29,651 bases of DNA from a virus (Duplodnaviria > Heunggongvirae > Uroviricota > Caudoviricetes), in the IMG/VR virus record IMGVR_UViG_2563366842_000009, one strand, 5' to 3'. The translations under genes were made by a program, and so were the position numbers. Under the pieces are notes generated by a model. The model worked only from the letters and a program-made list of their open reading frames with translations, had not been told where the DNA came from and made no database searches. This document shows, in pieces, positions 1 to 24,464 of the stretch (positions are counted from its first letter, which is position 1; each line of letters begins with the position of its first letter).

Positions 1-14
1 AACACGAGCAAACA

Positions 15-47
15 GATAAAAAAGGGCCAGCCAATTGGCCAGCCCTT
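15..47 (-). terminator. Near-palindromic hairpin (aagggccagccaattggccagccctt, 22..47) flanked by an A-run on the plus strand, i.e. a U-tract for minus-strand transcripts; candidate intrinsic terminator downstream of int or of a flanking host gene
   Basis: 11 of 13 stem positions pair when folded; aaaaaa immediately 5' on the plus strand. Confidence 0.4.
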
Positions 48-171
48 CTTAACAGGATGTCGCTTAAGCGAAACCTTAGTTAAGACGCTCCTATTAACAC
101 CCCATACCAAACAAGCACTTATCATATAAAACAACTAGTTAAAGTAATTTTTAATGCAATGAATTGCAGTG

Positions 172-1221
172 CTATGAAACCTCTGCCGCCACATTGTCGC
201 CAACATACAGCGATAACGGATTGAGGGTGACAGCTTGTTCAAGGTGGTCAGGAGCAAAGTGTGCATACTTCATTGTTTCTCGAATATTGGCATGCCCGAG
301 AATTTTCTGCAGCACCAGTATATTCCCGCCGTTCATCATAAAATGTGCACCAAAAGTATGACGCAAAACGTGCGTCTTCTGCCCTTCCGTCAATTCAATA
401 TTCGTTAGTTTGAGCATCTTTTTAAACTCCTGATAGCAGGGTTTAAACATTCTGCCTTGACGTTCGGACAACTCGTCGTACAGCCATTTAGGGATAGGAA
501 CTGTGCGATTCTTCTTACCTTTGGTTTTGGTGAACGTCAGTTTATATGGAGAAAGTTGCGGGCGGGTCAATCTCTCCGCTTCCCCCCATCGAGCGCCGGT
601 TGCAAGGCACACCTTAACAATCATGGTGAGGTCTTCTTTGCCGTATTGCTCGCAGGCTCGAAACAGCTCAGGGAGTTGAGACAAAGTCAGCCATGACATT
701 TCTTTCTCAGCTTCTTTGAATACTCGGATCCCATCAAGTGGATTGGGTAGGCTCCATTCCCCTAACCGGCGGAGCTCATTAAACACTGCTTCTAGGTATT
801 GTTGTTCGCGATTGACGGTTATAGGTTTGGCGATCCATTTCGAGGGGTCTTTATGATAACCATTGTCTATTTCACCACGTAATCGACGGTCACGATAATG
901 AGCCCAGTCTTTCGCGGTAAGGCGAGATGCAATCGGGTCGCCAAGTCCATTACATACGATTTGAAGCTTTGCAAACCTCGACTTACTGGCGACTAACGCT
1001 TGACCGTGCAAATTGTGCCAAAGCTGAATAATCTCGCTTAAGCGTCGGCGGTCTTCTTTCTTGCCGAGCCACGGCTTATCTTCACTCTCGCTTTTGGTAA
1101 ATGCTTCGAATGCCTCGGCCTCACCTTTGGTATTGAATTGCCGACGTATACGCCGCCCTTCTCTACCATTTGGATAGAGCTCGCATAACCATTTGCCATT
1201 TTTTTGCTTACTTACAGTCAT
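172..1221 (-). CDS. int: Phage integrase, tyrosine recombinase (P2/186 Int family)
   Basis: 349-aa ORF at the prophage end adjacent to the repressor; C-terminal catalytic region with LRHTFGAHF, LGH and a Tyr-containing tail typical of tyrosine recombinases. Confidence 0.9.
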   Translation of the reverse strand: MTVSKQKNGKWLCELYPNGREGRRIRRQFNTKGEAEAFEAFTKSESEDKPWLGKKEDRRRLSEIIQLWHNLHGQALVASKSRFAKLQIVCNGLGDPIASRLTAKDWAHYRDRRLRGEIDNGYHKDPSKWIAKPITVNREQQYLEAVFNELRRLGEWSLPNPLDGIRVFKEAEKEMSWLTLSQLPELFRACEQYGKEDLTMIVKVCLATGARWGEAERLTRPQLSPYKLTFTKTKGKKNRTVPIPKWLYDELSERQGRMFKPCYQEFKKMLKLTNIELTEGQKTHVLRHTFGAHFMMNGGNILVLQKILGHANIRETMKYAHFAPDHLEQAVTLNPLSLYVGDNVAAEVS

Positions 1222-1243
1222 AATGTCACCGAAGCAACTCTAA

Positions 1244-1582
1244 TTATTCGCAAAGTGCTGTTGCGGCATCCATTACAGGATCCAAAGGAATTTTTACACC
1301 TGCATACTCTGGACTGTCTTTCCAAACAGCATCAATATTGCTCCCCTCAAGCTTTCCAGACTTTACTCCATCAATAGCAAAACCATTTAATGGGTATCGG
1401 TCATCAGTTGCTTTGTCGTACACAAAGGCATACTTACCGTTGACGCAAGACACCGTAGCTTTTTCAAAAGTTAACGGCCAATCATCACCAAACTTAGTGC
1501 CGTCTAAATCCTGTGTTTTTTCAGAGGCTAAGGAGCCAAAAGAAAAGGTAAGAAGCATAGCTAAAAAGAGTTTACGTTTCAT
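1244..1582 (-). CDS. Small secreted (signal-peptide) protein, cargo/moron between cI and int; function unknown
   Basis: Start taken at the internal Met (MKRKLFLAMLLTFSFGSLA|SE...) with an AAGGGA RBS 8 nt after the repressor stop; the track ORF extends to 1654 but that overlaps the repressor 3' end. Hydrophobic N-terminal signal peptide with an SLA cleavage-like site, no lipobox Cys. Local GC is visibly lower than the backbone. Confidence 0.6.
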   Translation of the reverse strand: MKRKLFLAMLLTFSFGSLASEKTQDLDGTKFGDDWPLTFEKATVSCVNGKYAFVYDKATDDRYPLNGFAIDGVKSGKLEGSNIDAVWKDSPEYAGVKIPLDPVMDAATALCE

Positions 1583-1590
1583 AATTTCCC

Positions 1591-2451
1591 TTATACGTGT
1601 TTTTCCAATGTGAAAACTACAACCCCGGCAGGCGTAATGTCGGTAATGTTGCATTCAAACTCAGCAGACTTATTTGACAACCTGACTTTTCCACCAGGTA
1701 AACGAATTACATCAAAAACATCAAGAGCGCCGTCGATATCAATTAACCAGCGGCCATTACTTATATTCGAAGCAGAACAGTCGACAAGCCAAGAGGCGGC
1801 CACACCGTCAACAAAAATCAATTCCCCTGAGTTAGAAGGAATCATTGAGGGGTCAGGCTGCCACGTTCCTGCGTCCTTAAGCTCACCAGATTCGAGGCGA
1901 GATTTTTTAATAGAAAAACCAGATGTGACACCTTCCCTGTTAGCTCGCATTTGCCCCTTGCCTGTTGCTAACCATTCCAGTGACGTATCGGTATCAAGAG
2001 CGCATGTAACAACAACATCACCGGGGAAAAAATCTCGCCTTACCCATGTGCTAATTGTGCCAGAGGAAATGCCGAGCAAATCACCAAGCTCCTTTTGCAT
2101 GGTAAAGCCGTACGCATCAAGAATCCTACGCAAAACGGTTTTACCACCATTCGTCATAATCTCGTCATAAAGCTCTTTGCCTTTTAACTTGCAACCGGCA
2201 CGCTCGCAATTTGCATTTGCAAGCTCTCCATTTACAAGCCAATTGATATCAGCTCCCGTGTCAAGACAACACCTAACTATGACGTTGCCAGGTATTGCAT
2301 CACGCTGAACCCAGCCGCTAACGCTGTGTTTAGCGATACCTAGCAGGTCAGCCAAATCCTTTTGCATCTTGACGCCATAGGCTGACATTAAGCGTTCCAA
2401 TACGCCGTTCGTTGCACTAACACGCCACTGAACATCAAGCTCAGAACTCAT
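1591..2451 (-). CDS. cI: CI-type immunity repressor (186 CI family) with a tandemly duplicated N-terminal HTH domain
   Basis: 286 aa. Two adjacent segments (about aa 16-78 and 106-166) are clearly paralogous (VLERLMSAYGVKMQKDLADLLGIAKHSVSGWVQRDAIPGNVIVRCCLDTGADINWLVNGE vs VLRRILDAYGFTMQKELGDLLGISSGTISTWVRRDFFPGDVVVTCALDTDTSLEWLATGK). The C-terminal part resembles the 186 CI C-terminal domain as I recall it (...WLVDI.GA......LPG.K......FEC...). Divergent from the Apl-like gene, upstream of int as in 186. Confidence 0.8.
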   Translation of the reverse strand: MSSELDVQWRVSATNGVLERLMSAYGVKMQKDLADLLGIAKHSVSGWVQRDAIPGNVIVRCCLDTGADINWLVNGELANANCERAGCKLKGKELYDEIMTNGGKTVLRRILDAYGFTMQKELGDLLGISSGTISTWVRRDFFPGDVVVTCALDTDTSLEWLATGKGQMRANREGVTSGFSIKKSRLESGELKDAGTWQPDPSMIPSNSGELIFVDGVAASWLVDCSASNISNGRWLIDIDGALDVFDVIRLPGGKVRLSNKSAEFECNITDITPAGVVVFTLEKHV

Positions 2452-2480
2452 AAAAACCCCTATAGATAATTTTATGGGTG

Positions 2481-2509
2481 TTTACAGAAAACTTTTTACG
2501 ATCTATAGT
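2481..2509 (+). promoter_or_regulatory. Candidate lytic promoter (pR analogue): -35 TTTACA (2481..2486), 17-bp spacer, -10 TATAGT (2504..2509)
   Basis: Sigma70-like hexamers with canonical spacing in the cI/apl divergent intergenic region, about 65 nt upstream of the ATG at 2573, which has an AGGAG RBS. Confidence 0.5.
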
Positions 2510-2572
2510 GGCGTTCATCGACCAAGATGCACACCACTGCACTACATTTCAAACAACAGGAGATAATGCGAT

Positions 2573-2926
2573 ATGTCAGATGCAAAATCAATCCCGCTGC
2601 ATGACACACAAAACTTACAAAATCAAACTGTATTGCTAGACGCTGGTCAGTTCAACGCGCTTGTAACCATGATGCAGCTATCCATGCAAAACATGATTCG
2701 TACAGCGATGTTAGACACCATGTCAGTAAAAGACTTCGCCGCCGCCCGTGGCGTTAGCGAGCGTCTGGTCTGGCAATGGATTGATGAGGGCGTCCTTCTC
2801 AAAGCTCCCACCAAAGATGTTACCAGCAAAGAAAAAGCCGCTAAGCGTAGCCGCACCCTTATCAACGTCAAAGCATGGCGTGACAAACTGACCCAGCAAG
2901 CTATCGATTGCCGTTATATCAACTAA
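2573..2926 (+). CDS. Apl/Cox-like small DNA-binding regulator/excisionase (putative)
   Basis: First gene of the rightward early operon, divergent from cI, the position occupied by apl in 186 and cox in P2. Contains an HTH-like segment (VKDFAAARGVSERLVWQWIDEG). No close recalled match, so assignment rests on position. Confidence 0.5.
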   Translation: MSDAKSIPLHDTQNLQNQTVLLDAGQFNALVTMMQLSMQNMIRTAMLDTMSVKDFAAARGVSERLVWQWIDEGVLLKAPTKDVTSKEKAAKRSRTLINVKAWRDKLTQQAIDCRYIN

Positions 2927-2976
2927 CAGTCATCGCTTAACTGAACTTGATTTTGCAAGTTAAAGGGAGTTACAGC

Positions 2977-3486
2977 ATGTTAGATTTTCGTGTTTCGTCA
3001 CATGCGCACTTTGACGAGGCCTGCAGAAAATTCGCAGCTACTCATAACGTGAAAGAACTAGCGAATAAAGCCGGAATCAAGCCGCATACGCTTTACAACA
3101 AACTCAACCCAGAACAGCCGCACCAGTTAACGCCGCGTGAAATCTGGACACTGACAGACCTGACCGAAGACTCGACTCTCGTCGATGGTTTTCTGGCGCA
3201 GATCCATTGTCTGCCATGCGTACCGGTCAACGAGCTGGCAAAAGAGAAATTGCAATCCTACGTCATGCACGCAATGAGTGAACTAGGCGAACTGGCAAGC
3301 GGTGCAGTTTCCGGCGACCGCCTCACGCCAGCCAAAAAACAAAACATGATTGCTAGCGTAAATGCGGGGATTCGCATGTTGTCATTATCGGCAATGGCGC
3401 TGCATGCACGCCTGCAGACTAATCCCGCTATGTCGAGCGTAGTCGATACTATGAGCGGTATTGGCGCATCGTTTGGTCTGATTTGA
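2977..3486 (+). CDS. cII: CII-like lysogeny-establishment transcriptional activator (186 CII family)
   Basis: Start chosen at ATG 2977 with AAGGGAG RBS, giving 169 aa. Strong similarity to 186 CII as recalled (LNPEQPHQ.TP, TDLTEDSTLVDGFLAQIHCLPCVPVNELAK, C-terminal NPAMSSVVDTMSGIGASFGLI). Confidence 0.85.
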   Translation: MLDFRVSSHAHFDEACRKFAATHNVKELANKAGIKPHTLYNKLNPEQPHQLTPREIWTLTDLTEDSTLVDGFLAQIHCLPCVPVNELAKEKLQSYVMHAMSELGELASGAVSGDRLTPAKKQNMIASVNAGIRMLSLSAMALHARLQTNPAMSSVVDTMSGIGASFGLI

Positions 3487-3493
3487 GGTGCGT

Positions 3494-3721
3494 ATGCTGA
3501 AAAGTGAACCGTCATTCGCGTCTCTGCTCGTTAAGCAAAGCCCCGGCATGCATTACGGCCACGGCTGGATCGCAGGTAAGGACGGCAAGCGCTGGCACCC
3601 GTGCCGCTCACAGTCCGAATTATTAAAAGGGCTGAAAACAAAGTCGCCGAAATCGTCAGGTTTTTTAATTATTCGTATTGTCCACTTTGTAATTAAAGGA
3701 GTGAAACATGTCACGCGATGA
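3494..3721 (+). CDS. Hypothetical early protein
   Basis: ORF immediately after cII with GAGGTG-like RBS before ATG 3494; the 3' part runs into an AT-rich island, so the true extent is uncertain. Confidence 0.35.
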   Translation: MLKSEPSFASLLVKQSPGMHYGHGWIAGKDGKRWHPCRSQSELLKGLKTKSPKSSGFLIIRIVHFVIKGVKHVTR

Positions 3722-3908
3722 ATTAAGAATTGTTTTGGGTGCCATGATTCCAAATATGGAGGAAGGTTTTGAAATTAAAACCCGCGACGGCGCAATACTT
3801 CGCGTTGACCCTGAGTGGGAGTGCTGCAAAGAATTTAAGGATGGATTAAAAGCCGAAATCATCAAGCAGTTAAAAAGCAAGCCTGCTGTTGTATTTGGAT
3901 ATAGTTAA
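3708..3908 (+). CDS. Hypothetical small protein (66 aa) in a low-GC island
   Basis: Strong RBS (AAAGGAG) 6 nt before ATG 3708. Surrounding DNA (about 3640..3960) is markedly AT-rich and bounded by ttaattaattaa, suggesting inserted cargo. Confidence 0.5.
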   Translation: MSRDELRIVLGAMIPNMEEGFEIKTRDGAILRVDPEWECCKEFKDGLKAEIIKQLKSKPAVVFGYS

Positions 3909-3974
3909 TTAATTAAACGTAATTACTTGGCGTAAACCCGCCGGGCATTCTTTTGCCAAAAATCAGGAGGATAT

Positions 3975-4208
3975 ATGAGTCGAACTATTTATTTATCAAC
4001 GCCGAGTAGTGCTGGCGACCACGTGCTGGAGTCTTTGTTTAAAGAAGCCAAAAAAGAAGAGCGCAAAGACCGCGCTCTCGCCGTTTCAATCCGTCTCGAA
4101 GCTCTGGCCGTTCACATTACCAATTCAGATATGACCGGCAAAGAAGCGGCCGAACTGTTGCGCCGTGAAGCAGCCCGCTTTGAGAACGAGTCACAGGAGC
4201 TGCACTAA
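3975..4208 (+). CDS. Hypothetical early protein (77 aa)
   Basis: AGGAGG RBS before ATG 3975; stop overlaps the next start (TAATG), indicating translational coupling. Confidence 0.6.
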   Translation: MSRTIYLSTPSSAGDHVLESLFKEAKKEERKDRALAVSIRLEALAVHITNSDMTGKEAAELLRREAARFENESQELH

Positions 4209-4429
4209 TGGCCGACGCAATTGATTTAGCACAACAGCGTGAGCAGGAAGACCGCGAGCGCCACATCAGCAACGCGCGCAGCCGTATCGCTGCGCCCTCT
4301 CGCTTCCTCTGCGAAGAATGTGACGCACCAATCCCGGAAGCTCGCCGCATTGCGATTCCGGGCGTGGCCTTTTGCGTGACATATCAGCAAATCGCGGAGC
4401 TCAAACACAAACACTACAGGGGCGTTTAA
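4208..4429 (+). CDS. TraR/DksA-family zinc-finger protein (P2 Orf82-like)
   Basis: 73 aa with CEEC...FCVT Cys motif and an N-terminal acidic coiled region; similar small proteins are conserved in P2-like early operons (recalled). Confidence 0.6.
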   Translation: MADAIDLAQQREQEDRERHISNARSRIAAPSRFLCEECDAPIPEARRIAIPGVAFCVTYQQIAELKHKHYRGV

Positions 4430-4819
4430 ATGGTTAATAAACACTTAACAGACAAGCGCGCGCGTCTGCGCAGGGCCGCTCAAGACTACCAATCTACATT
4501 ATCGTGGTATCAAGAAAACCTCGATAGTCCAAATGCAGAACAGGATTGCGATGAGGCAACCGCGGCATTTAAGCGCGAAATCGGCCATCGAGAGACAGAC
4601 ATTATTGCTGACCTGTTGGATGAAATAGACGAGCTCCGGGAATACCGAAAAGCTCGCATTGTTCCTGATGGCTGGATAGCAGTACCTTCGGAGCCTACTG
4701 GCGATATGCTGGCGCGAATCAAGCTTTCTGATATTTGGACAACCGAAGCGCTAACCACCAGATACAAAGACATGCTACGCGCCGCCCCTCGCGCGCCATA
4801 TGAGGGGATAAACAAATGA
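4430..4819 (+). CDS. Hypothetical early protein (129 aa)
   Basis: Translationally coupled ORF in the early operon. Confidence 0.55.
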   Translation: MVNKHLTDKRARLRRAAQDYQSTLSWYQENLDSPNAEQDCDEATAAFKREIGHRETDIIADLLDEIDELREYRKARIVPDGWIAVPSEPTGDMLARIKLSDIWTTEALTTRYKDMLRAAPRAPYEGINK

Positions 4820-5088
4820 GCATTAATATCAGTATTGGCGACAAATGGGTTATTACCAGCGACCAGTATCAATTCATCCTGAATGAAAAGAAGGTCGTTA
4901 AGTCTGGTAAAAAAGCTGGCGAGGAATGGCTCGACACCATCGGTTATTACCCCAAGATTAACCAGCTTATTTCCGGGCTGATTCATCATCATATTCAGCA
5001 GTCATCAATTACCACGCTTGACGCAATGGCATCTGAAATTGAGCGTATCGGAGAAATGTGCGCCTCCTCTATCAAGGCGGCGACATGA
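4816..5088 (+). CDS. Hypothetical early protein (90 aa)
   Basis: ATGA overlap with the preceding ORF; coupled early-operon position. Confidence 0.55.
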   Translation: MSINISIGDKWVITSDQYQFILNEKKVVKSGKKAGEEWLDTIGYYPKINQLISGLIHHHIQQSSITTLDAMASEIERIGEMCASSIKAAT

Positions 5089-5366
5089 GAAAAACACATC
5101 AACTAAAAATTCGGCCTGAGTTTTTTCAGGCTGTCATCAATGGAACGAAAAAAGCCGAGTTTCGTCTTGCTGACCGTGCTTTTGCTGTAGGGGATTTACT
5201 TTGCTTAAACGAGTATGGCCACTGCGAGTATGACCCGCAAAAGGTCGGGTTTACAGGGGCATTTGTCTACGTGCTGGTGACTCATGTAACTGACCTTAGC
5301 GAGTGGGCTCCTGGCTATGTGATGCTAAGCATACAGCGTAGGCAAATGGGGGAACTATGCGGGTAA
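5085..5366 (+). CDS. ASCH/DUF3850-like small protein
   Basis: Start at ATG 5085 (AAGGCGG RBS); the N-terminus (HQLKIRPEFFQAVINGTKKAEFRL.DR.F.VGD) resembles the ASCH-like DUF3850 fold as recalled. Confidence 0.55.
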   Translation: MRKTHQLKIRPEFFQAVINGTKKAEFRLADRAFAVGDLLCLNEYGHCEYDPQKVGFTGAFVYVLVTHVTDLSEWAPGYVMLSIQRRQMGELCG

Positions 5367-7591
5367 GCGTTAATTATGCTTACCCGTGGAACACTCCACG
5401 GTCGGCAATAGCCAGCCCATATCTTACCTATAACCAACAGCATCGCCGCGACCGTATGTTCGCGGCTTTGCTGCATGCGAGAAAGGTGCTTTCTCTGCAG
5501 CCTGAGTGCGTGCGATTTGACGTTTATCGCACCGCTGAAGTGCTGGAACAAAATCAGGGCAGTCAACGAGCCAATGCTTTTTTAATCAACTTCTGCAAAA
5601 AGGCATTGCCGCGTCTTGAACTGGTCGCAAAAAAATATGAGTGTGCAGGCATTAGCAGCGATGTATCAGGCGCTGTTTTCGGTGGTCATTTCGATACGAA
5701 ATATATGCAGTATCTGGCATCACGTATGGTCAATATGGTCGCCAGATACAACCGCCTCCCGGATATGTCGCGTGCCGACATTGACCTGCTTTCTGCTGAT
5801 ATCGCTAATTTTATTCGTGCTGAACTGGCAGAACATGATGACGCTGATTCACATTTCGGCGAGTTGGCGACATTACATGGCTGGTACATGCGCGCCGGAT
5901 TAATTGCGCTGCAATTTGGTGTTACTCCTCCTCATTGGGCGGGACTGACAACAAAATACTTTGACCAGGACAAAGCGGCGCCAGCAATCATGCGCATGTT
6001 TAATGAGGTTTGGTGGCGTGGCCGTCTGCGACGCATTGCTGCGTCATGGCGCGAACATCTGCAAATTGCAGTCGGTAATGTCAGCAAAAAACGACACGCC
6101 TACGCGAGTAAAAATTGTGTGACCGACTGGCGCGAGCAGAAGCGCCGCACGCGTGAATTTCTCAAAGGGCTGGATCTCGAAGACGAAGACGGCAACCGCA
6201 TCAGCCTGATTGAAAAATATGATGGCTCGGTCGCCAACCCTGCGATACGTCGCTGCGAGCTGATGACCCGCATCCGTGGGTTTGAAAATATCTGTAATGA
6301 ACTCGGTTATGTCGGGGAGTTTTACACCCTGACCGCGCCGTCTAAATATCACGCCACAACTAAAGCAGGCTACCGTAACAGCAAATGGAACGGAGCCAGC
6401 CCGTCGGACACGCAGAGTTATCTCACTGGCCTTTGGGCGCGCATACGCGCCAAGCTACACCGTGAAGAAATCCGCATTTTCGGCATCCGTGTTGCCGAGC
6501 CTCATCACGACGGGACGCCTCACTGGCACATGCTTATGTTTATGCTGCCGGAAGACGTTGAGCGTGTGCGCCTCATTATTCGCGATTATGCGTGGGAGGA
6601 AGACCACCACGAACTGAGAAGCGATAAAGCCAAAAAGGCACGTTTTCATGCCGAAGCCATTGACCCGGAAAAGGGCAGCGCTACCGGCTATGTCGCTAAA
6701 TACATTTCCAAAAACATCGACGGATATGCTCTTGATGGTGAAACCGATGACGAAAGCGGTGAGCTGCTGAAAGAGACAGCTCCCGCCGTATCAGCATGGG
6801 CGGCGCGCTGGCACATCCGTCAGTTCCAGTTTATCGGCGGTGCGCCGGTGACGGTCTACCGTGAATTACGTCGTCTCGCTGATACCGAGACCGCGCACGG
6901 TCTGAGCGTTGAGTTTGCTGCCGTCCATGATGCCGCTGACGCCGGTGACTGGGCTGGTTACGTTAATTCGCAGGGTGGTCCGTTTGTCCGTCGCGATGAT
7001 TTACAGGTGCGCACGCTGTATGAGCCGCGCCCCGAGTTTAACCAGTATGGTGAGGAAACCGTCTGCATTCGTGGCGTCTACGACTCTGCTGTCGGTGCTG
7101 GCACCCCGATTTTAACCCGGTTAACGCAGTGGAAAATTGTGCCGAAGCGTGCCGTTGATTTGGCCGTTGACGTTAAGGGCGCTCCTGCGCCCTCTCGGAG
7201 TTCTGTCAATAACTGTACGGGAAGCGAAAGCGATCCACCGGAACTCGATTTATCAAAACCCCTGAGTCGACGTGAAAGACGAGAGCTGACCAACCGACTC
7301 AGGAAGCAAAAGCCAGCAATACGGCGAAAATTCATCCACGGAACGGATGAGCAAAACGCAGCTATAGCTAAAACTATCGACGAGATACAACTGACAACCG
7401 GCATTACAATCGGCCGTGGCGAAGCCCTGCACCTGATGGCCGGTGGTAAAAGTTGTTTTGATGGCAAATGGCTACGCGGAACGGCCAAAGGAGAAATATT
7501 CTTAGCAGCACCATCGCATCAGGCTAAGGCTAGAAAAATCCTTTATCGTGTTGCTGCGATGGCTGAGGCATCAAAACCAATGCCTGAGTAA
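5357..7591 (+). CDS. A: Rolling-circle replication initiator endonuclease (P2 gpA family)
   Basis: 744 aa. HUH-type metal-binding motif (TPHWHMLMF) and catalytic tyrosine motif (GYVAKYISKNIDG) characteristic of P2 A / phiX174 A-type replicases; size and position match P2 gpA. Confidence 0.9.
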   Translation: MRVSVNYAYPWNTPRSAIASPYLTYNQQHRRDRMFAALLHARKVLSLQPECVRFDVYRTAEVLEQNQGSQRANAFLINFCKKALPRLELVAKKYECAGISSDVSGAVFGGHFDTKYMQYLASRMVNMVARYNRLPDMSRADIDLLSADIANFIRAELAEHDDADSHFGELATLHGWYMRAGLIALQFGVTPPHWAGLTTKYFDQDKAAPAIMRMFNEVWWRGRLRRIAASWREHLQIAVGNVSKKRHAYASKNCVTDWREQKRRTREFLKGLDLEDEDGNRISLIEKYDGSVANPAIRRCELMTRIRGFENICNELGYVGEFYTLTAPSKYHATTKAGYRNSKWNGASPSDTQSYLTGLWARIRAKLHREEIRIFGIRVAEPHHDGTPHWHMLMFMLPEDVERVRLIIRDYAWEEDHHELRSDKAKKARFHAEAIDPEKGSATGYVAKYISKNIDGYALDGETDDESGELLKETAPAVSAWAARWHIRQFQFIGGAPVTVYRELRRLADTETAHGLSVEFAAVHDAADAGDWAGYVNSQGGPFVRRDDLQVRTLYEPRPEFNQYGEETVCIRGVYDSAVGAGTPILTRLTQWKIVPKRAVDLAVDVKGAPAPSRSSVNNCTGSESDPPELDLSKPLSRRERRELTNRLRKQKPAIRRKFIHGTDEQNAAIAKTIDEIQLTTGITIGRGEALHLMAGGKSCFDGKWLRGTAKGEIFLAAPSHQAKARKILYRVAAMAEASKPMPE

Positions 7592-7664
7592 TTCATATCC
7601 ATATCATGCACATACAGCAATCACCCTATTCATTTTTTTCTTCCCATCTTTTACCAATACGTGC

Positions 7665-7684
7665 TACTGTATAAACATACAGTA
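7665..7684. promoter_or_regulatory. LexA (SOS) box TACTGTATAAACATACAGTA
   Basis: Perfect CTGT-N8-ACAG dyad with flanking TA/TA, about 20 nt upstream of a GGGAGGG RBS and ATG 7705; corresponds in position to the LexA-controlled p95/tum promoter of 186. Confidence 0.8.
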
Positions 7685-7704
7685 CACCCTATGGGAGGGA
7701 TTTC

Positions 7705-7887
7705 ATGGTTGGCGAACATTTCAGCCGAACGCAGCAAAAGTGGGCTTGTGTGCAATTTATCGCCGAGGTATCTCTGATTGCAAACTGCAAGCCATCAGAC
7801 TTAAAGCTCGCGCTCACTCTCATTGCAGACCTAGCAAACAGCGAAAATAACGAAACCGAAGATGATATTTTTTATAAGGCTGATTAG
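7705..7887 (+). CDS. SOS-operon ORF 1 (60 aa), possible N-terminal part of a Tum-like antirepressor
   Basis: Immediately downstream of the LexA box with a strong RBS; ends at TAG 7885..7887, in the same frame as the DinI-like ORF that starts one codon later. Confidence 0.55.
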   Translation: MVGEHFSRTQQKWACVQFIAEVSLIANCKPSDLKLALTLIADLANSENNETEDDIFYKAD

Positions 7888-7890
7888 ATT

Positions 7891-8124
7891 ATGAGAATCA
7901 ATATCACGTTGGATAAAGAGCAAAAAATTAGTCAGGCAACGTTGGATGCACTAGAGGCTGAGCTGTACCGCAATCTTCAACCTATTTACCCAAAGACTGC
8001 TATCCGCATTCGCAAGGGCTCCGCAAATGGTGTTGAGCTAAGCGGTTTGAAACTGGACGAAGATAAAAAACGAGTAATGGAAATCATGCAGCAAGTATGG
8101 GAAGACGATAGCTGGCTGCATTAA
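7891..8124 (+). CDS. DinI-family protein (Tum C-terminal-like module)
   Basis: 77 aa aligning along its length with E. coli DinI as recalled (MRI.[IV]T..K......A.DAL..EL.R......P......R.......LS........K.R..EI.Q..WE....W); low-GC region. Confidence 0.8.
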   Translation: MRINITLDKEQKISQATLDALEAELYRNLQPIYPKTAIRIRKGSANGVELSGLKLDEDKKRVMEIMQQVWEDDSWLH

Positions 8125-8130
8125 TAAACG

Positions 8131-8165
8131 CCGCCAGCGCTGAAACTCGCTTTCAGTGCTGGCGG
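8131..8165. terminator. Hairpin between convergent genes (15-bp stem with 1 mismatch, loop ctcgc); candidate bidirectional terminator
   Basis: ccgccagcgctgaaa / tttcagtgctggcgg inverted repeat located between the DinI-like stop (8124) and the stop of the minus-strand 312-aa gene (8198). Confidence 0.5.
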
Positions 8166-8197
8166 GGTTGAACAACGAGCTACGCGAGGCGTTAGTG

Positions 8198-9136
8198 TTA
8201 ATTTAGTTTTAATGAATGGTACTCAACCGAGTCGACCTTAGATTTGATATATGTACAATCATTTACAGAGAGTAATGCTGCTAGTAAGCGACATACCAGA
8301 GCCTGCATTTCTCGTAATATATCATCACCATATTGACCGCCATTAACACTGGAGAAACCAAGCGGTTGACCATAGAAAATAGCCTCATGAAAATTATCAT
8401 TGCGGATGGTTGTAATATTTTTTTTGCCTGTTACCCATGAAGGACGTGGTATGCCATAGGTTTCGCACAGCCACTTTAACCGCCTGGAATGATTTAACGT
8501 TTTTTCAGGGCACTTGTTTTTTTCTGCCCACGCTAAAGCAAAGCAACCATCCAATGCCATATAAAGATAATGGAACTTTTCAAATGAAAGGTATTGTGGG
8601 TTGTGAGATAAAAATAGTGCGTGCACCACTGCCGCTATTTTTATTGGTGATTTCTCTTTTTTTTGCTCGCTAGATATGTAATTGAGAGCCAATTCTATGA
8701 TTGCTTTTTCAGAGCATCTGCCGAGAGTAAAGTCTGTTAACTTAGCAGGCTTGATGGGGGTTGCATCTAAAAAACCAGCTTCGGTGGTTGTTAATCTCAT
8801 CCCCCTGAAAAAAGACAGGCACCACACAACAAAGTTGAGAGTTTCTAGCGAGGATGTATTTTTTAATTTTAGTATGTGCGTTTTTGGTAATCCGAATACT
8901 CGGCAACTATAAGGCATTGTGGATATGCCGCCATTAAAGTTATATATCTCTTGGTTTCCGGGGTATATCCAGCCATTAACAACATTTTTGTCATTGTTAA
9001 CGCGCTCTACTTTCTCAGCGAGGCCGGGTAAAGTAAGTAAAGAAAAATTTTCAGTCTCAATGTTAACTTCTACTGGATAGTATCCAAACTCAGATCCAAT
9101 CTCATCGGGCTGCTGTTCGGTAACTTCACCTTGCAT
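8198..9136 (-). CDS. Orphan 312-aa protein in the A-cos accessory hotspot; candidate anti-phage defence or abortive-infection protein, function unknown
   Basis: Good RBS (GGAG 6 nt before ATG at 9136); low GC relative to the phage backbone; no signal peptide or obvious transmembrane segment; occupies the old/tin position of P2. Contains an R-N-x-x-x-H motif (RNDNFH, 8387..8404), which is only weak evidence for a HEPN-like RNase. Confidence 0.7.
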   Translation of the reverse strand: MQGEVTEQQPDEIGSEFGYYPVEVNIETENFSLLTLPGLAEKVERVNNDKNVVNGWIYPGNQEIYNFNGGISTMPYSCRVFGLPKTHILKLKNTSSLETLNFVVWCLSFFRGMRLTTTEAGFLDATPIKPAKLTDFTLGRCSEKAIIELALNYISSEQKKEKSPIKIAAVVHALFLSHNPQYLSFEKFHYLYMALDGCFALAWAEKNKCPEKTLNHSRRLKWLCETYGIPRPSWVTGKKNITTIRNDNFHEAIFYGQPLGFSSVNGGQYGDDILREMQALVCRLLAALLSVNDCTYIKSKVDSVEYHSLKLN

Positions 9137-9373
9137 ATCTTTCTCCGTTCAAAAATAGGCTCGATAGTTATGGAGAGGCTATCATGTTTGGAAATAGCCA
9201 ATGTTCGTGATTTTTGTAAATTTAAGGTGATTTATCAATAAATAAGCTGTGCATGCAACAGGTGCATGGTTTTGCATGCGTCAGGCTTGCCCGTTCTGGT
9301 AGTGCGCCGCCAGAGCTGGCACGGATCCAGAGTGGTCATGCAACTGCATTAAAACCGACCCATAAAGCGGGCA

Positions 9374-9392
9374 GGCGTGGCGGGGAAAGCAT
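9374..9392. other. Candidate cos site (19-nt cohesive-end sequence GGCGTGGCGGGGAAAGCAT)
   Basis: Matches the 186 cohesive-end sequence as I recall it, differing at 2 of 19 positions from the recalled P2 cos; lies about 180 bp downstream of the portal gene Q, as expected for P2-family phages. Confidence 0.6.
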
Positions 9393-9533
9393 TGCGCGCC
9401 AGAGGTGGTGCGTAATAATAAAAATTATCGTCTGAGCGCGCCATGATGGCGCGTTTATGGTCGCTTTCGATTCGTTGGTGGTTGGGTGTGGTAGTGCGCG
9501 TGCGGCGCGTCTGAGGCGTGATGGTGGCGGGGT

Positions 9534-9557
9534 ATGAAAAAACCGCCATAATGGCGG
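9534..9557 (-). terminator. Short hairpin (ccgcc-ataat-ggcgg) followed by a U-run on the minus strand; candidate terminator of the leftward P-Q operon
   Basis: Immediately downstream of the Q stop on the minus strand; plus-strand aaaaaa gives a T6 tract on the minus strand. The stem is short (5-6 bp). Confidence 0.4.
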
Positions 9558-9569
9558 CTTGAGGGGGAG

Positions 9570-10616
9570 TTATTCCGGGTTATCGAGGGTGTACTCTTTG
9601 AACCTGATGACCTCCATGCCGAGCCAGTCGTTTACCTCCCTGAACCTGTCCTGCAGCGGCGACAGCTCGTTACGCACAAATACCTTTGCCACCTTCTCAA
9701 CGTCACCGAGCGAGCCGATATTCTCGGGCTTACCGCCCATTAGCTGGAAAGGTACGCGGTGCGCATCCATCAGGTCGGCGGCACTGGCTTTCTTGATATT
9801 GAAAAAGTCATCCTTTGTGGCGACCTCGCTCAGTGGCACGATTTTTATGCCGTCCGGTTTTCCACCGGGGGCGTAGAAAAACAGGTTCTTAAAGTTGCCG
9901 AGCCCTTTCGAGTTGCGCATCGCCTCGCGTAGTGATTCGACGTCGGTCGCACTCTGCGCCGGGTCGGTTACATACATGATGTAACCCGCGTGCGCGCCGT
10001 TCTGGTAATACTTGCGGCGGAACAGCGTTGCGGATTCATTCAGCCAGGCAGAATTAAGCGCGCTGAGATATTCCGGCAGGCCGTAAATCTCCTGATTAAT
10101 GTCAGGCTCCAGCAGGTGAAACACGGTATCAGGCGCGAACTCATGCGGCTGAGTGAAGTTTTCCACAAACCAGAAAATTGAATCATCAACCCCACGGCGG
10201 GTGTATTTTGCTGGTGATGCCAGCAACTTGATTAACTGGCCGGTGACGCTGTGGCGCTGCTCAAGAAAAGCGTTGCCGAAGACCAGATAGTCGAGCGCAA
10301 AACGGCTGAAATCCTGACGGGACAGCAGCGGGTGCGGAATGTAGGTGCTCGCGAGCACGTTGCGTTTAACGTAAATCGGTGAGCTGTGATGCACGGCAGA
10401 GCGCAGGCTCTTTGCCAGCCCGGAAAAGCTGACCGGCGGCTCGTACCATTTGCCGTTACTGATGCACTCGACATAATCCAGAATGTCGCGCTTATCGAGC
10501 ACCGGAACTGGCTCACCGAAGGTGAACGCTTCCATTTTTTGCGGTGCGCTGGCTTTCAGTTGCTGTGGTGCGCGTGTTTTCTGCGCGGCGGCTTTGCGGG
10601 ATTTTTGCTTACCCAT
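9570..10616 (-). CDS. Q: Portal protein (P2 gpQ family)
   Basis: 348 aa; extensive recalled similarity to P2 Q (MEAFTFGEPVPVLD.RDILDYVECISNG.WYEPPVSF.GLAKSLR.AVHHSSPIYVKRN.LAST...). Start overlaps the stop of P. Confidence 0.95.
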   Translation of the reverse strand: MGKQKSRKAAAQKTRAPQQLKASAPQKMEAFTFGEPVPVLDKRDILDYVECISNGKWYEPPVSFSGLAKSLRSAVHHSSPIYVKRNVLASTYIPHPLLSRQDFSRFALDYLVFGNAFLEQRHSVTGQLIKLLASPAKYTRRGVDDSIFWFVENFTQPHEFAPDTVFHLLEPDINQEIYGLPEYLSALNSAWLNESATLFRRKYYQNGAHAGYIMYVTDPAQSATDVESLREAMRNSKGLGNFKNLFFYAPGGKPDGIKIVPLSEVATKDDFFNIKKASAADLMDAHRVPFQLMGGKPENIGSLGDVEKVAKVFVRNELSPLQDRFREVNDWLGMEVIRFKEYTLDNPE

Positions 10617-23285: not shown

Positions 23286-24464
23286 ATGAGTGATTTTCAC
23301 CACGGCGTACAGGTGCTTGAAATTAACGACGGCACCCGCGTCATTTCCACTGTTTCGACCGCTATCATCGGCATGGTCTGCACGGCAAGTGATGCGGATG
23401 CGAAGCTATTCCCCCTCAATGAGCCGGTACTGATTACCAATGTGCAAAGCGCCATTGCGAAAGCCGGTAAAAAAGGCACGCTGGCAGCCTCTCTGCAGGC
23501 CATCGCCGACCAGGCTAAACCTGTCACTATTGTTGTGCGCGTTGCCGAAGGTACCGGCGACGACGCAGAAGCGCAGACCGTTACCAACATCATCGGTGGC
23601 ACGGATGAGAACGGCAAATACACCGGTATTAAAGCGCTGTTGACTGCCGAAGCGGTTACCGGCGTTAAGCCGCGTATTCTCGGCGTGCCGGGTCTCGATA
23701 CACAGGAGGTGGCGGTCGCACTTGCGTCAGTCGCTATCAAACTACGCGCATTTTGCTATGTCAGCGCGTGGGGCTGTAAAACCATTTCCGAGGCGATGGC
23801 CTATCGCGAGAATTTCAGCCAGCGCGAACTGATGGTCATCTGGCCTGACTTCCTCGCATGGGATACCACCGCAAACGCCACTGCCACGGCATACGCCACC
23901 GCCCGCGCACTCGGTCTGCGTGCCTACATCGACCAGACTATCGGCTGGCACAAAACGCTGTCTAACGTTGGCGTACAGGGCGTCACTGGCATCAGTGCCT
24001 CAGTCTTTTGGGATTTGCAGGCATCCGGCACCGATGCTGACCTGCTCAACGGGGCCGGAGTCACAACGCTGGTTCGCAAGGATGGTTTCCGCTTTTGGGG
24101 AAACCGCACCTGCTCTGATGACCCGCTTTTCCTGTTTGAGAACTACACACGCACCGCGCAGGTACTGGCCGACACGATGGCTGAGGCGCACATGTGGGCG
24201 GTCGATAAACCCATCACTGCATCGCTCATCCGTGACATTGTCGACGGTATTAACGCCAAATTCCGCGAGCTGAAATCTAACGGTTACATCGTGGACGGTG
24301 AATGCTGGTTCGATGAGGAATCGAATGACAAGGAAACCCTCAAGGCCGGGAAACTGTATATCGACTACGACTATACACCGGTTCCCCCACTGGAAAGCCT
24401 GACCCTGCGCCAGCGTATCACCGATAAATATCTGGTGAATCTGGCCGAATCGGTCAACAGCTAA
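23286..24464 (+). CDS. FI: Contractile tail sheath protein (P2 gpFI family)
   Basis: 392 aa; N-terminus MSDFHHGVQVLEINDGTRVISTVSTAIIGMVCTASDAD... matches P2 FI as recalled. Confidence 0.95.
   Translation: MSDFHHGVQVLEINDGTRVISTVSTAIIGMVCTASDADAKLFPLNEPVLITNVQSAIAKAGKKGTLAASLQAIADQAKPVTIVVRVAEGTGDDAEAQTVTNIIGGTDENGKYTGIKALLTAEAVTGVKPRILGVPGLDTQEVAVALASVAIKLRAFCYVSAWGCKTISEAMAYRENFSQRELMVIWPDFLAWDTTANATATAYATARALGLRAYIDQTIGWHKTLSNVGVQGVTGISASVFWDLQASGTDADLLNGAGVTTLVRKDGFRFWGNRTCSDDPLFLFENYTRTAQVLADTMAEAHMWAVDKPITASLIRDIVDGINAKFRELKSNGYIVDGECWFDEESNDKETLKAGKLYIDYDYTPVPPLESLTLRQRITDKYLVNLAESVNS

Follow-up and report, generated by a model that had tools for sequence, protein, structure and literature searches.

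The stretch of DNA analysed here, which we call the window, is 29,651 nt long. An AT-rich island lies at 3640–3960, in the early operon between cII and the replicase gene A. The island and its surroundings comprise the following features, given in window coordinates:

3494–3721, plus strand: fil, encoding a 75-aa cell-division inhibitor (Pfam Phage_186_Fil, E 5e-24, residues 5–55; 100% identical to 186 Fil)
3615–3640, no strand: left cassette junction, inside fil, where identity to relatives with other cassettes drops from 0.9–1.0 to 0.3–0.5
3697–3701, plus strand: Shine–Dalgarno sequence AGGAG of dhr, inside the fil reading frame, read from the sequence
3708–3908, plus strand: dhr, encoding 66 aa (7.5 kDa, pI 5.4; 66/66 identical to 186 Dhr, AAC34180)
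3905–3916, no strand: (TTAA)x3 block, occurring once in the window and containing the dhr stop codon; right cassette edge
3926–3955, plus strand: tR1, a predicted intrinsic terminator with its stem at 3926–3945 followed by CATTCTTTTG (terminator scan and fold hairpin)
3975–4208, plus strand: orf79 homologue (Pfam DUF2732, E 4e-22; Orf79 in the 186 annotation); right-hand conserved flank

The AT-rich island described by the initial annotation is real: GC falls to 0.393 there, whereas the window as a whole has 0.527 and the early operon 0.504. A value this low is reached by 1.4% of 321-bp segments taken anywhere in the window and by 1.7% taken within the operon. The same annotation took the early operon to be otherwise GC-rich and the island to be bounded by ttaattaattaa. 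Neither description held: positions 4801–5000, for example, have 41.5% GC, and the motif exists as one copy only, at the 3′ edge (3905–3916), with just TTAATTA, at 3665, at the 5′ edge. The island does encode a small protein, at 3708–3908, but it is not one gene. It runs from the 3′ tail of fil (its first ~80 bases) through dhr and the (TTAA)x3 stop block up to tR1, which takes up its last ~35 bases. GC at third codon positions (GC3) is 0.39 in dhr and 0.46–0.62 in the neighbouring genes, as determined by a windowed GC and codon-composition check. The (TTAA)x3 block is palindromic, reading identically on the two strands, and gives a TAA stop in every frame of each. An antisense ORF at 3665–3880 on the minus strand (71 aa) was discarded as a by-product of the AT-rich coding region, and Rfam identified no RNA family in positions 1–10000.

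The ORF at 3708–3908 has the strong ribosome-binding site ascribed to it, AGGAG at 3697–3701, six bases before the ATG. Its product is identical to Dhr of coliphage 186 over the full length in BLASTP (66/66, E 1e-49), and PHROG 6069, the Dhr family, matches residues 1–66 (E 2e-48). At the DNA level, 497 of 501 positions at 3480–3980 are identical to phage 186, and blastn of 3300–4300 against phage records returns coliphage 186 and Salmonella phage BIS20 at ~94% identity, with fil, dhr, cII and Orf79 under the match. The same gene goes by the name ‘protein dhr’ in phage BIS20 and in some NCBI records. The 186 GenBank record (U32222) annotates this region as follows:

23952–24179: fil, ‘overexpression blocks cell division’
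24166–24366: dhr, ‘inhibits host DNA replication’
24384–24412: tR1, terminator
after tR1: Orf79, unknown function, not essential

The window shares with the 186 dhr locus (U32222 / NC_001317, 24166–24366; ‘depresses host replication’; PF26872) the same protein and length, the 14-nt overlap of fil and dhr, tR1 and orf79. The gene order cII, fil, dhr, terminator and DUF2732 likewise matches the 186 record. By sequence comparison, the island ORF is phage 186 dhr, a gene that is not new: the 186 record already carries annotations for the gene's phenotype and for the terminator next to it. The initial annotation had anticipated an accessory early protein of host takeover but missed that phage 186, a model phage, already has this gene named and defined by experiment. 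We consider it very probable that the island holds the dhr module of a temperate phage of the 186-like (Eganvirus) type. A search of a limited set of literature found no paper on Dhr; its effect on host replication, and the dispensability of dhr to the phage, are taken from the GenBank note for phage 186 and from background literature. The observation that Dhr depresses host replication reportedly goes back to Richardson and Egan in 1989.

The tR1 stem has seven pairs, five of them G–C, with a T-run next to it in the terminator scan, and the hairpin site maps onto 186 tR1 at 24384–24412. It is a likely terminator by these features; termination and antitermination read-through stand in the 186 annotation. 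The first gene past tR1 is the orf79 homologue, with the ribosome-binding site AGGAGG at 3965–3970. The early promoter is pR according to the 186 record, and no promoter was detected upstream of dhr, the sole weak site lying inside the ORF versus 1.3 expected from shuffles. Farther downstream, a DUF3850/ASCH-like ORF (RNA-binding fold) at 5085–5366 on the plus strand stands just before the replicase gene A and overlaps its start; in phage 186, a much longer orf84 fills this position.

Dhr forms a small family. Among 5.8 billion proteins there are 75 Dhr clusters, all at least 74% identical to the query, and the named ones are all from Enterobacteriaceae. Dhr gave no hit in Pfam, NCBIfam or PADLOC, where the Pfam copy searched did not include the PF26872 model; in a precomputed table, the PF26872 tag (Phage_186_Dhr) is carried by all 75 homologues at 74–98% identity. 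Seven matches came from an exhaustive profile search against 1.84 billion cluster representatives, among them three proteins of 65–69 aa with 29–36% identity. Of these three distant relatives, two are encoded in the early operons of further P2-like prophages, and the third is on a 998-bp contig with no informative context. One of the two prophages has the order Fil, Dhr, DUF2732, and its Dhr relative ends in TTAATTAATT, with a tR1-like hairpin next; in the other, the relative follows Cox and precedes a Dam methylase and an A-type replicase. In L093, a distant prophage of the P2-like kind, the (TTAA)x3 motif lies at 4195–4206 and closes a Dhr relative of 36% identity. Every homologue with readable context sits in a P2/186-like early operon. 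The family is evidently narrow, and the module is old and confined to the P2/186-like group wherever its context can be read.

The fold of Dhr is predicted to consist of a helix (residues 3–17), a β-hairpin (21–33) and a second helix (38–57). A first AlphaFold model, built with close homologues alone, was poor (pLDDT 63.8); with the distant relatives added, the best model reached pLDDT 85.5 and pTM 0.61, the other four scoring 62–73. Foldseek found nothing in the PDB with the first model, and searches with the improved model gave no informative match. Residues I14, P15, M17, G20, F21, I23, P35 and F43 are invariant across the family. The pair C39–C40 is invariant in close relatives and absent from distant ones, and so gives no mechanistic clue. 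No signal peptide or membrane segment is visible in Dhr.

We propose that Dhr is made as part of an early takeover of the host. dhr stands fourth in the early lytic operon driven by pR (an apl-like gene, cII, fil, dhr), in its promoter-proximal segment; as tR1, the first early terminator, comes after it, dhr would be carried on the shortest early transcript and made straight after infection or induction. The protein, acidic, soluble and without enzyme-like features, most probably acts by binding a host replication component stoichiometrically. Chromosome replication would be depressed while the phage replicates by rolling circle via its own A protein, the purpose presumably being to free replication resources. 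With Fil blocking division, Fil and Dhr together would halt the host cell cycle once the lytic promoter fires. Our best guess, offered tentatively, is that Dhr acts at the initiation stage at oriC rather than on fork progression. Phage 186 itself reportedly depends on host dnaA and dnaC, in which case Dhr is unlikely to act by simply inactivating either of their products.

Small phage proteins that stop host replication by binding one of its proteins are known from other systems: ORF104 of Staphylococcus phage 77 acts on DnaI and ORF240 of phage G1 acts on the sliding clamp. Like Dhr, they are small early proteins recorded as inhibiting DNA synthesis in the host, but no sequence or fold similarity to Dhr was found, and the likeness would be an analogy of action only. 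The initial annotation had expected either an anti-defence or a host-takeover role for a small early cargo protein, and it is host takeover that the identity to 186 Dhr, an annotated inhibitor of host replication, favours; the anti-defence half is without support. An anti-defence protein might well look like Dhr, which is small, acidic, expressed early and encoded in a variable slot, as many anti-defence genes are, and whose family is listed as ‘unknown function’ by PHROGs. However, its sole recorded phenotype is inhibition of host replication, and Pfam, profile and structure searches revealed no similarity of sequence or fold to any described protein. The neighbouring fil also encodes an inhibitor of host physiology, which fits a takeover module. 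We therefore regard it as improbable that Dhr is mainly an inhibitor of restriction or abortive infection, with the depression of replication a side effect.

The position occupied by dhr varies among related phages. We surveyed 80 viral contigs anchored on an Orf79 homologue, locating cII, Fil, Dhr and Orf79 in each, and found three types of occupant:

dhr: 22 of 80 contigs; slot of 328–331 bp; GC 0.38–0.41; Fil of 75 aa
112–113-aa gene, Pfam DUF5347: 52 of 80 contigs; slot of 414–429 bp; GC 0.44–0.49; Fil of 66 aa
123-aa gene, PHROG 17301: 6 of 80 contigs; slot of 482–483 bp; GC 0.42–0.50; Fil of 65–66 aa

The flanks of the slot have GC 0.50–0.57 in all three types. The initial annotation had read the ORF as cargo rather than as a core gene conserved at this position across 186-like phages, and that reading agrees with the survey: dhr stands there in just 22 of the 80 186-like contigs and unrelated genes stand there in the others, so dhr is evidently accessory, not core. 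Among complete E. coli genomes, megablast detects the cII–fil junction in 108 and the dhr island in 53 at its sensitivity; in the phage collection, the whole 3300–4300 query is covered by 10 of 95 matching records.

The edges of the cassette can be placed closely. Through cII, contig L025 hardly differs from the window, but its cassette is of the DUF5347 type, and its identity to the window is lost at ~3615–3640 and regained at ~3910–3925. The drop at the left junction recurs in comparisons with DUF5347-type and 123-aa-type relatives and falls inside fil, such that codons 1 to ~45–50 are conserved flank and the tail, 3644–3721, is part of the exchangeable cassette; Fil homology to the window beyond residue ~50 is limited to loci with dhr. 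On the right, the aligned junctions all retain the tR1 hairpin (GGCGTAAACCCGCC with its T-run) and the Orf79 ribosome-binding site, whatever the cassette type; tR1 is therefore flank, not cargo. Variants of TAATTAA are found at the right junction of all three types, just ahead of tR1. The (TTAA)x3 block may guarantee a translation stop whichever cassette is present, or may anchor recombination. The last 25 residues of Fil, encoded at 3644–3721 in the window, vary with the cassette: with dhr, Fil has 75 aa and a basic hydrophobic tail (pI 12), and with a DUF5347 or 123-aa gene it has 66 aa.

The DUF5347 genes (PF17282) of PSP3-like, EtG and Midge phages and the 123-aa ORF share with dhr their position (fil codon ~50 to tR1), operon and AT shift. 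Unlike dhr, they are longer (112–123 aa), are accompanied by the shorter, 66-aa Fil and are unrelated in sequence: hhalign detected no relation between Dhr and the alternative cassette proteins, with a probability below 1%. Between DUF5347 and the 123-aa ORF themselves, hhalign found a weak C-terminal resemblance (E 0.004, probability 8%). In PSP3 (L003; NC_005340, 25321–25696), no gene is annotated between fil and orf33; the gap there matches a DUF5347 cassette in length and composition but contains just a 38-aa ORF, which suggests a disrupted gene or a sequencing frameshift.

Two features of the island could be taken to mean that it is a foreign moron which arrived recently, carries its own expression signals and is expressed in the prophage state to benefit the lysogen: its composition (GC 0.39, with flanks of 0.53) and the polymorphism of its position among relatives (22 dhr, 52 DUF5347, 6 ORF123). 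We consider this highly improbable. First, no promoter signal above chance accompanies dhr, which instead overlaps fil translationally inside the CI-repressed pR operon. Second, the low GC is shared by alleles that have long diverged. All 19 distinct dhr alleles have GC3 of 0.36–0.46, and some of them are separated by 28.5 synonymous and 8.5 non-synonymous differences. Mean GC3 is 0.40 for dhr and 0.42 and 0.47 for the other two cassette types, compared with 0.49–0.59 for the flanking genes. Because dhr alleles are synonymously saturated yet remain low in GC3, and because the other cassettes are also AT-shifted, low GC does not mark recent import; it is a lasting property of slot occupants, and AT-richness is a weak argument for a recent arrival. 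Third, distant relatives of Dhr lie in the same slot of other P2-like phages, which, together with the synonymously divergent low-GC3 alleles, indicates that the association of dhr with the slot is old.

A reading in which the ORF is mere coincidence and the island serves as non-coding regulatory DNA (a site of pausing, attenuation or H-NS binding ahead of tR1) can be practically dismissed: although the island is AT-rich and directly upstream of a terminator subject to antitermination, and all three cassette types are AT-shifted, no Rfam match was found, dhr is a genetically defined gene in phage 186, its median dN/dS of 0.03 over 146 allele pairs reveals strong purifying selection, and its length of 66 codons is constant in all alleles.

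The window itself belongs to a 186-like (Eganvirus) phage other than 186. Its cII is just 80% identical to that of 186, its repressor has 286 aa and two HTH domains where 186 CI has 192 aa, and over the whole window its nearest matches are PSP3, SEN1 and SW9, at ~90% identity across ~85% of the first 25 kb. It follows that the dhr cassette of 186 is here embedded in a different mosaic. The CI-type repressor (1591–2451, minus strand) matches the Phage_CI_repr HTH domain twice and carries a CI C-terminal domain, which points to a DNA-binding domain duplicated in tandem and to an immunity type unlike that of 186.

The window has other AT-rich segments. A DUF2511 (YebY-like) ORF at 1244–1579 on the minus strand, between the integrase and the repressor, has a signal-peptide-like N terminus, lies in an AT-rich patch (GC ~0.40) and looks like a lysogenic-conversion gene; in the distant P2-like prophage L093, a DUF2511-type gene adjoins the integrase too. 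The largest AT-rich block, at 7564–9300 (GC 0.37–0.42), follows the replicase gene A and contains a DinI-like gene (7891–8124, plus strand), a 60-aa ORF (PHROG 1993) and, on the opposite strand, a 312-aa ORF at 8198–9136 that belongs to PHROG 5937, of unknown function, and has no Pfam or PADLOC match. As a candidate for true cargo, this block is stronger than the dhr island.

Our analysis adds to the existing annotation the exact boundaries of the cassette, the three slot occupants, the coupling of the Fil C terminus to the cassette and the role of tR1 as the right anchor. A broader reading, possible but doubtful as a whole, is that the interval from fil codon ~50 to (TTAA)x3 is a dedicated exchange slot of P2/186-like phages, anchored on the fil core and tR1, in which at least three unrelated small genes swap, each with its own Fil C terminus. 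The DUF5347 and 123-aa genes would then be counterparts of Dhr, as inhibitors of host replication or host physiology or as counter-defence genes, and the tail of Fil would be adapted to the gene that it accompanies.

The finding stands but is an ordinary one: a gene already known, in a mosaic context that is likewise ordinary. Its use lies in the molecular target of Dhr, whose family is small, tightly conserved and easy to test. The DUF5347 and PHROG 17301 genes of the slot, both conserved, are natural candidates for the same host-takeover kind of role.
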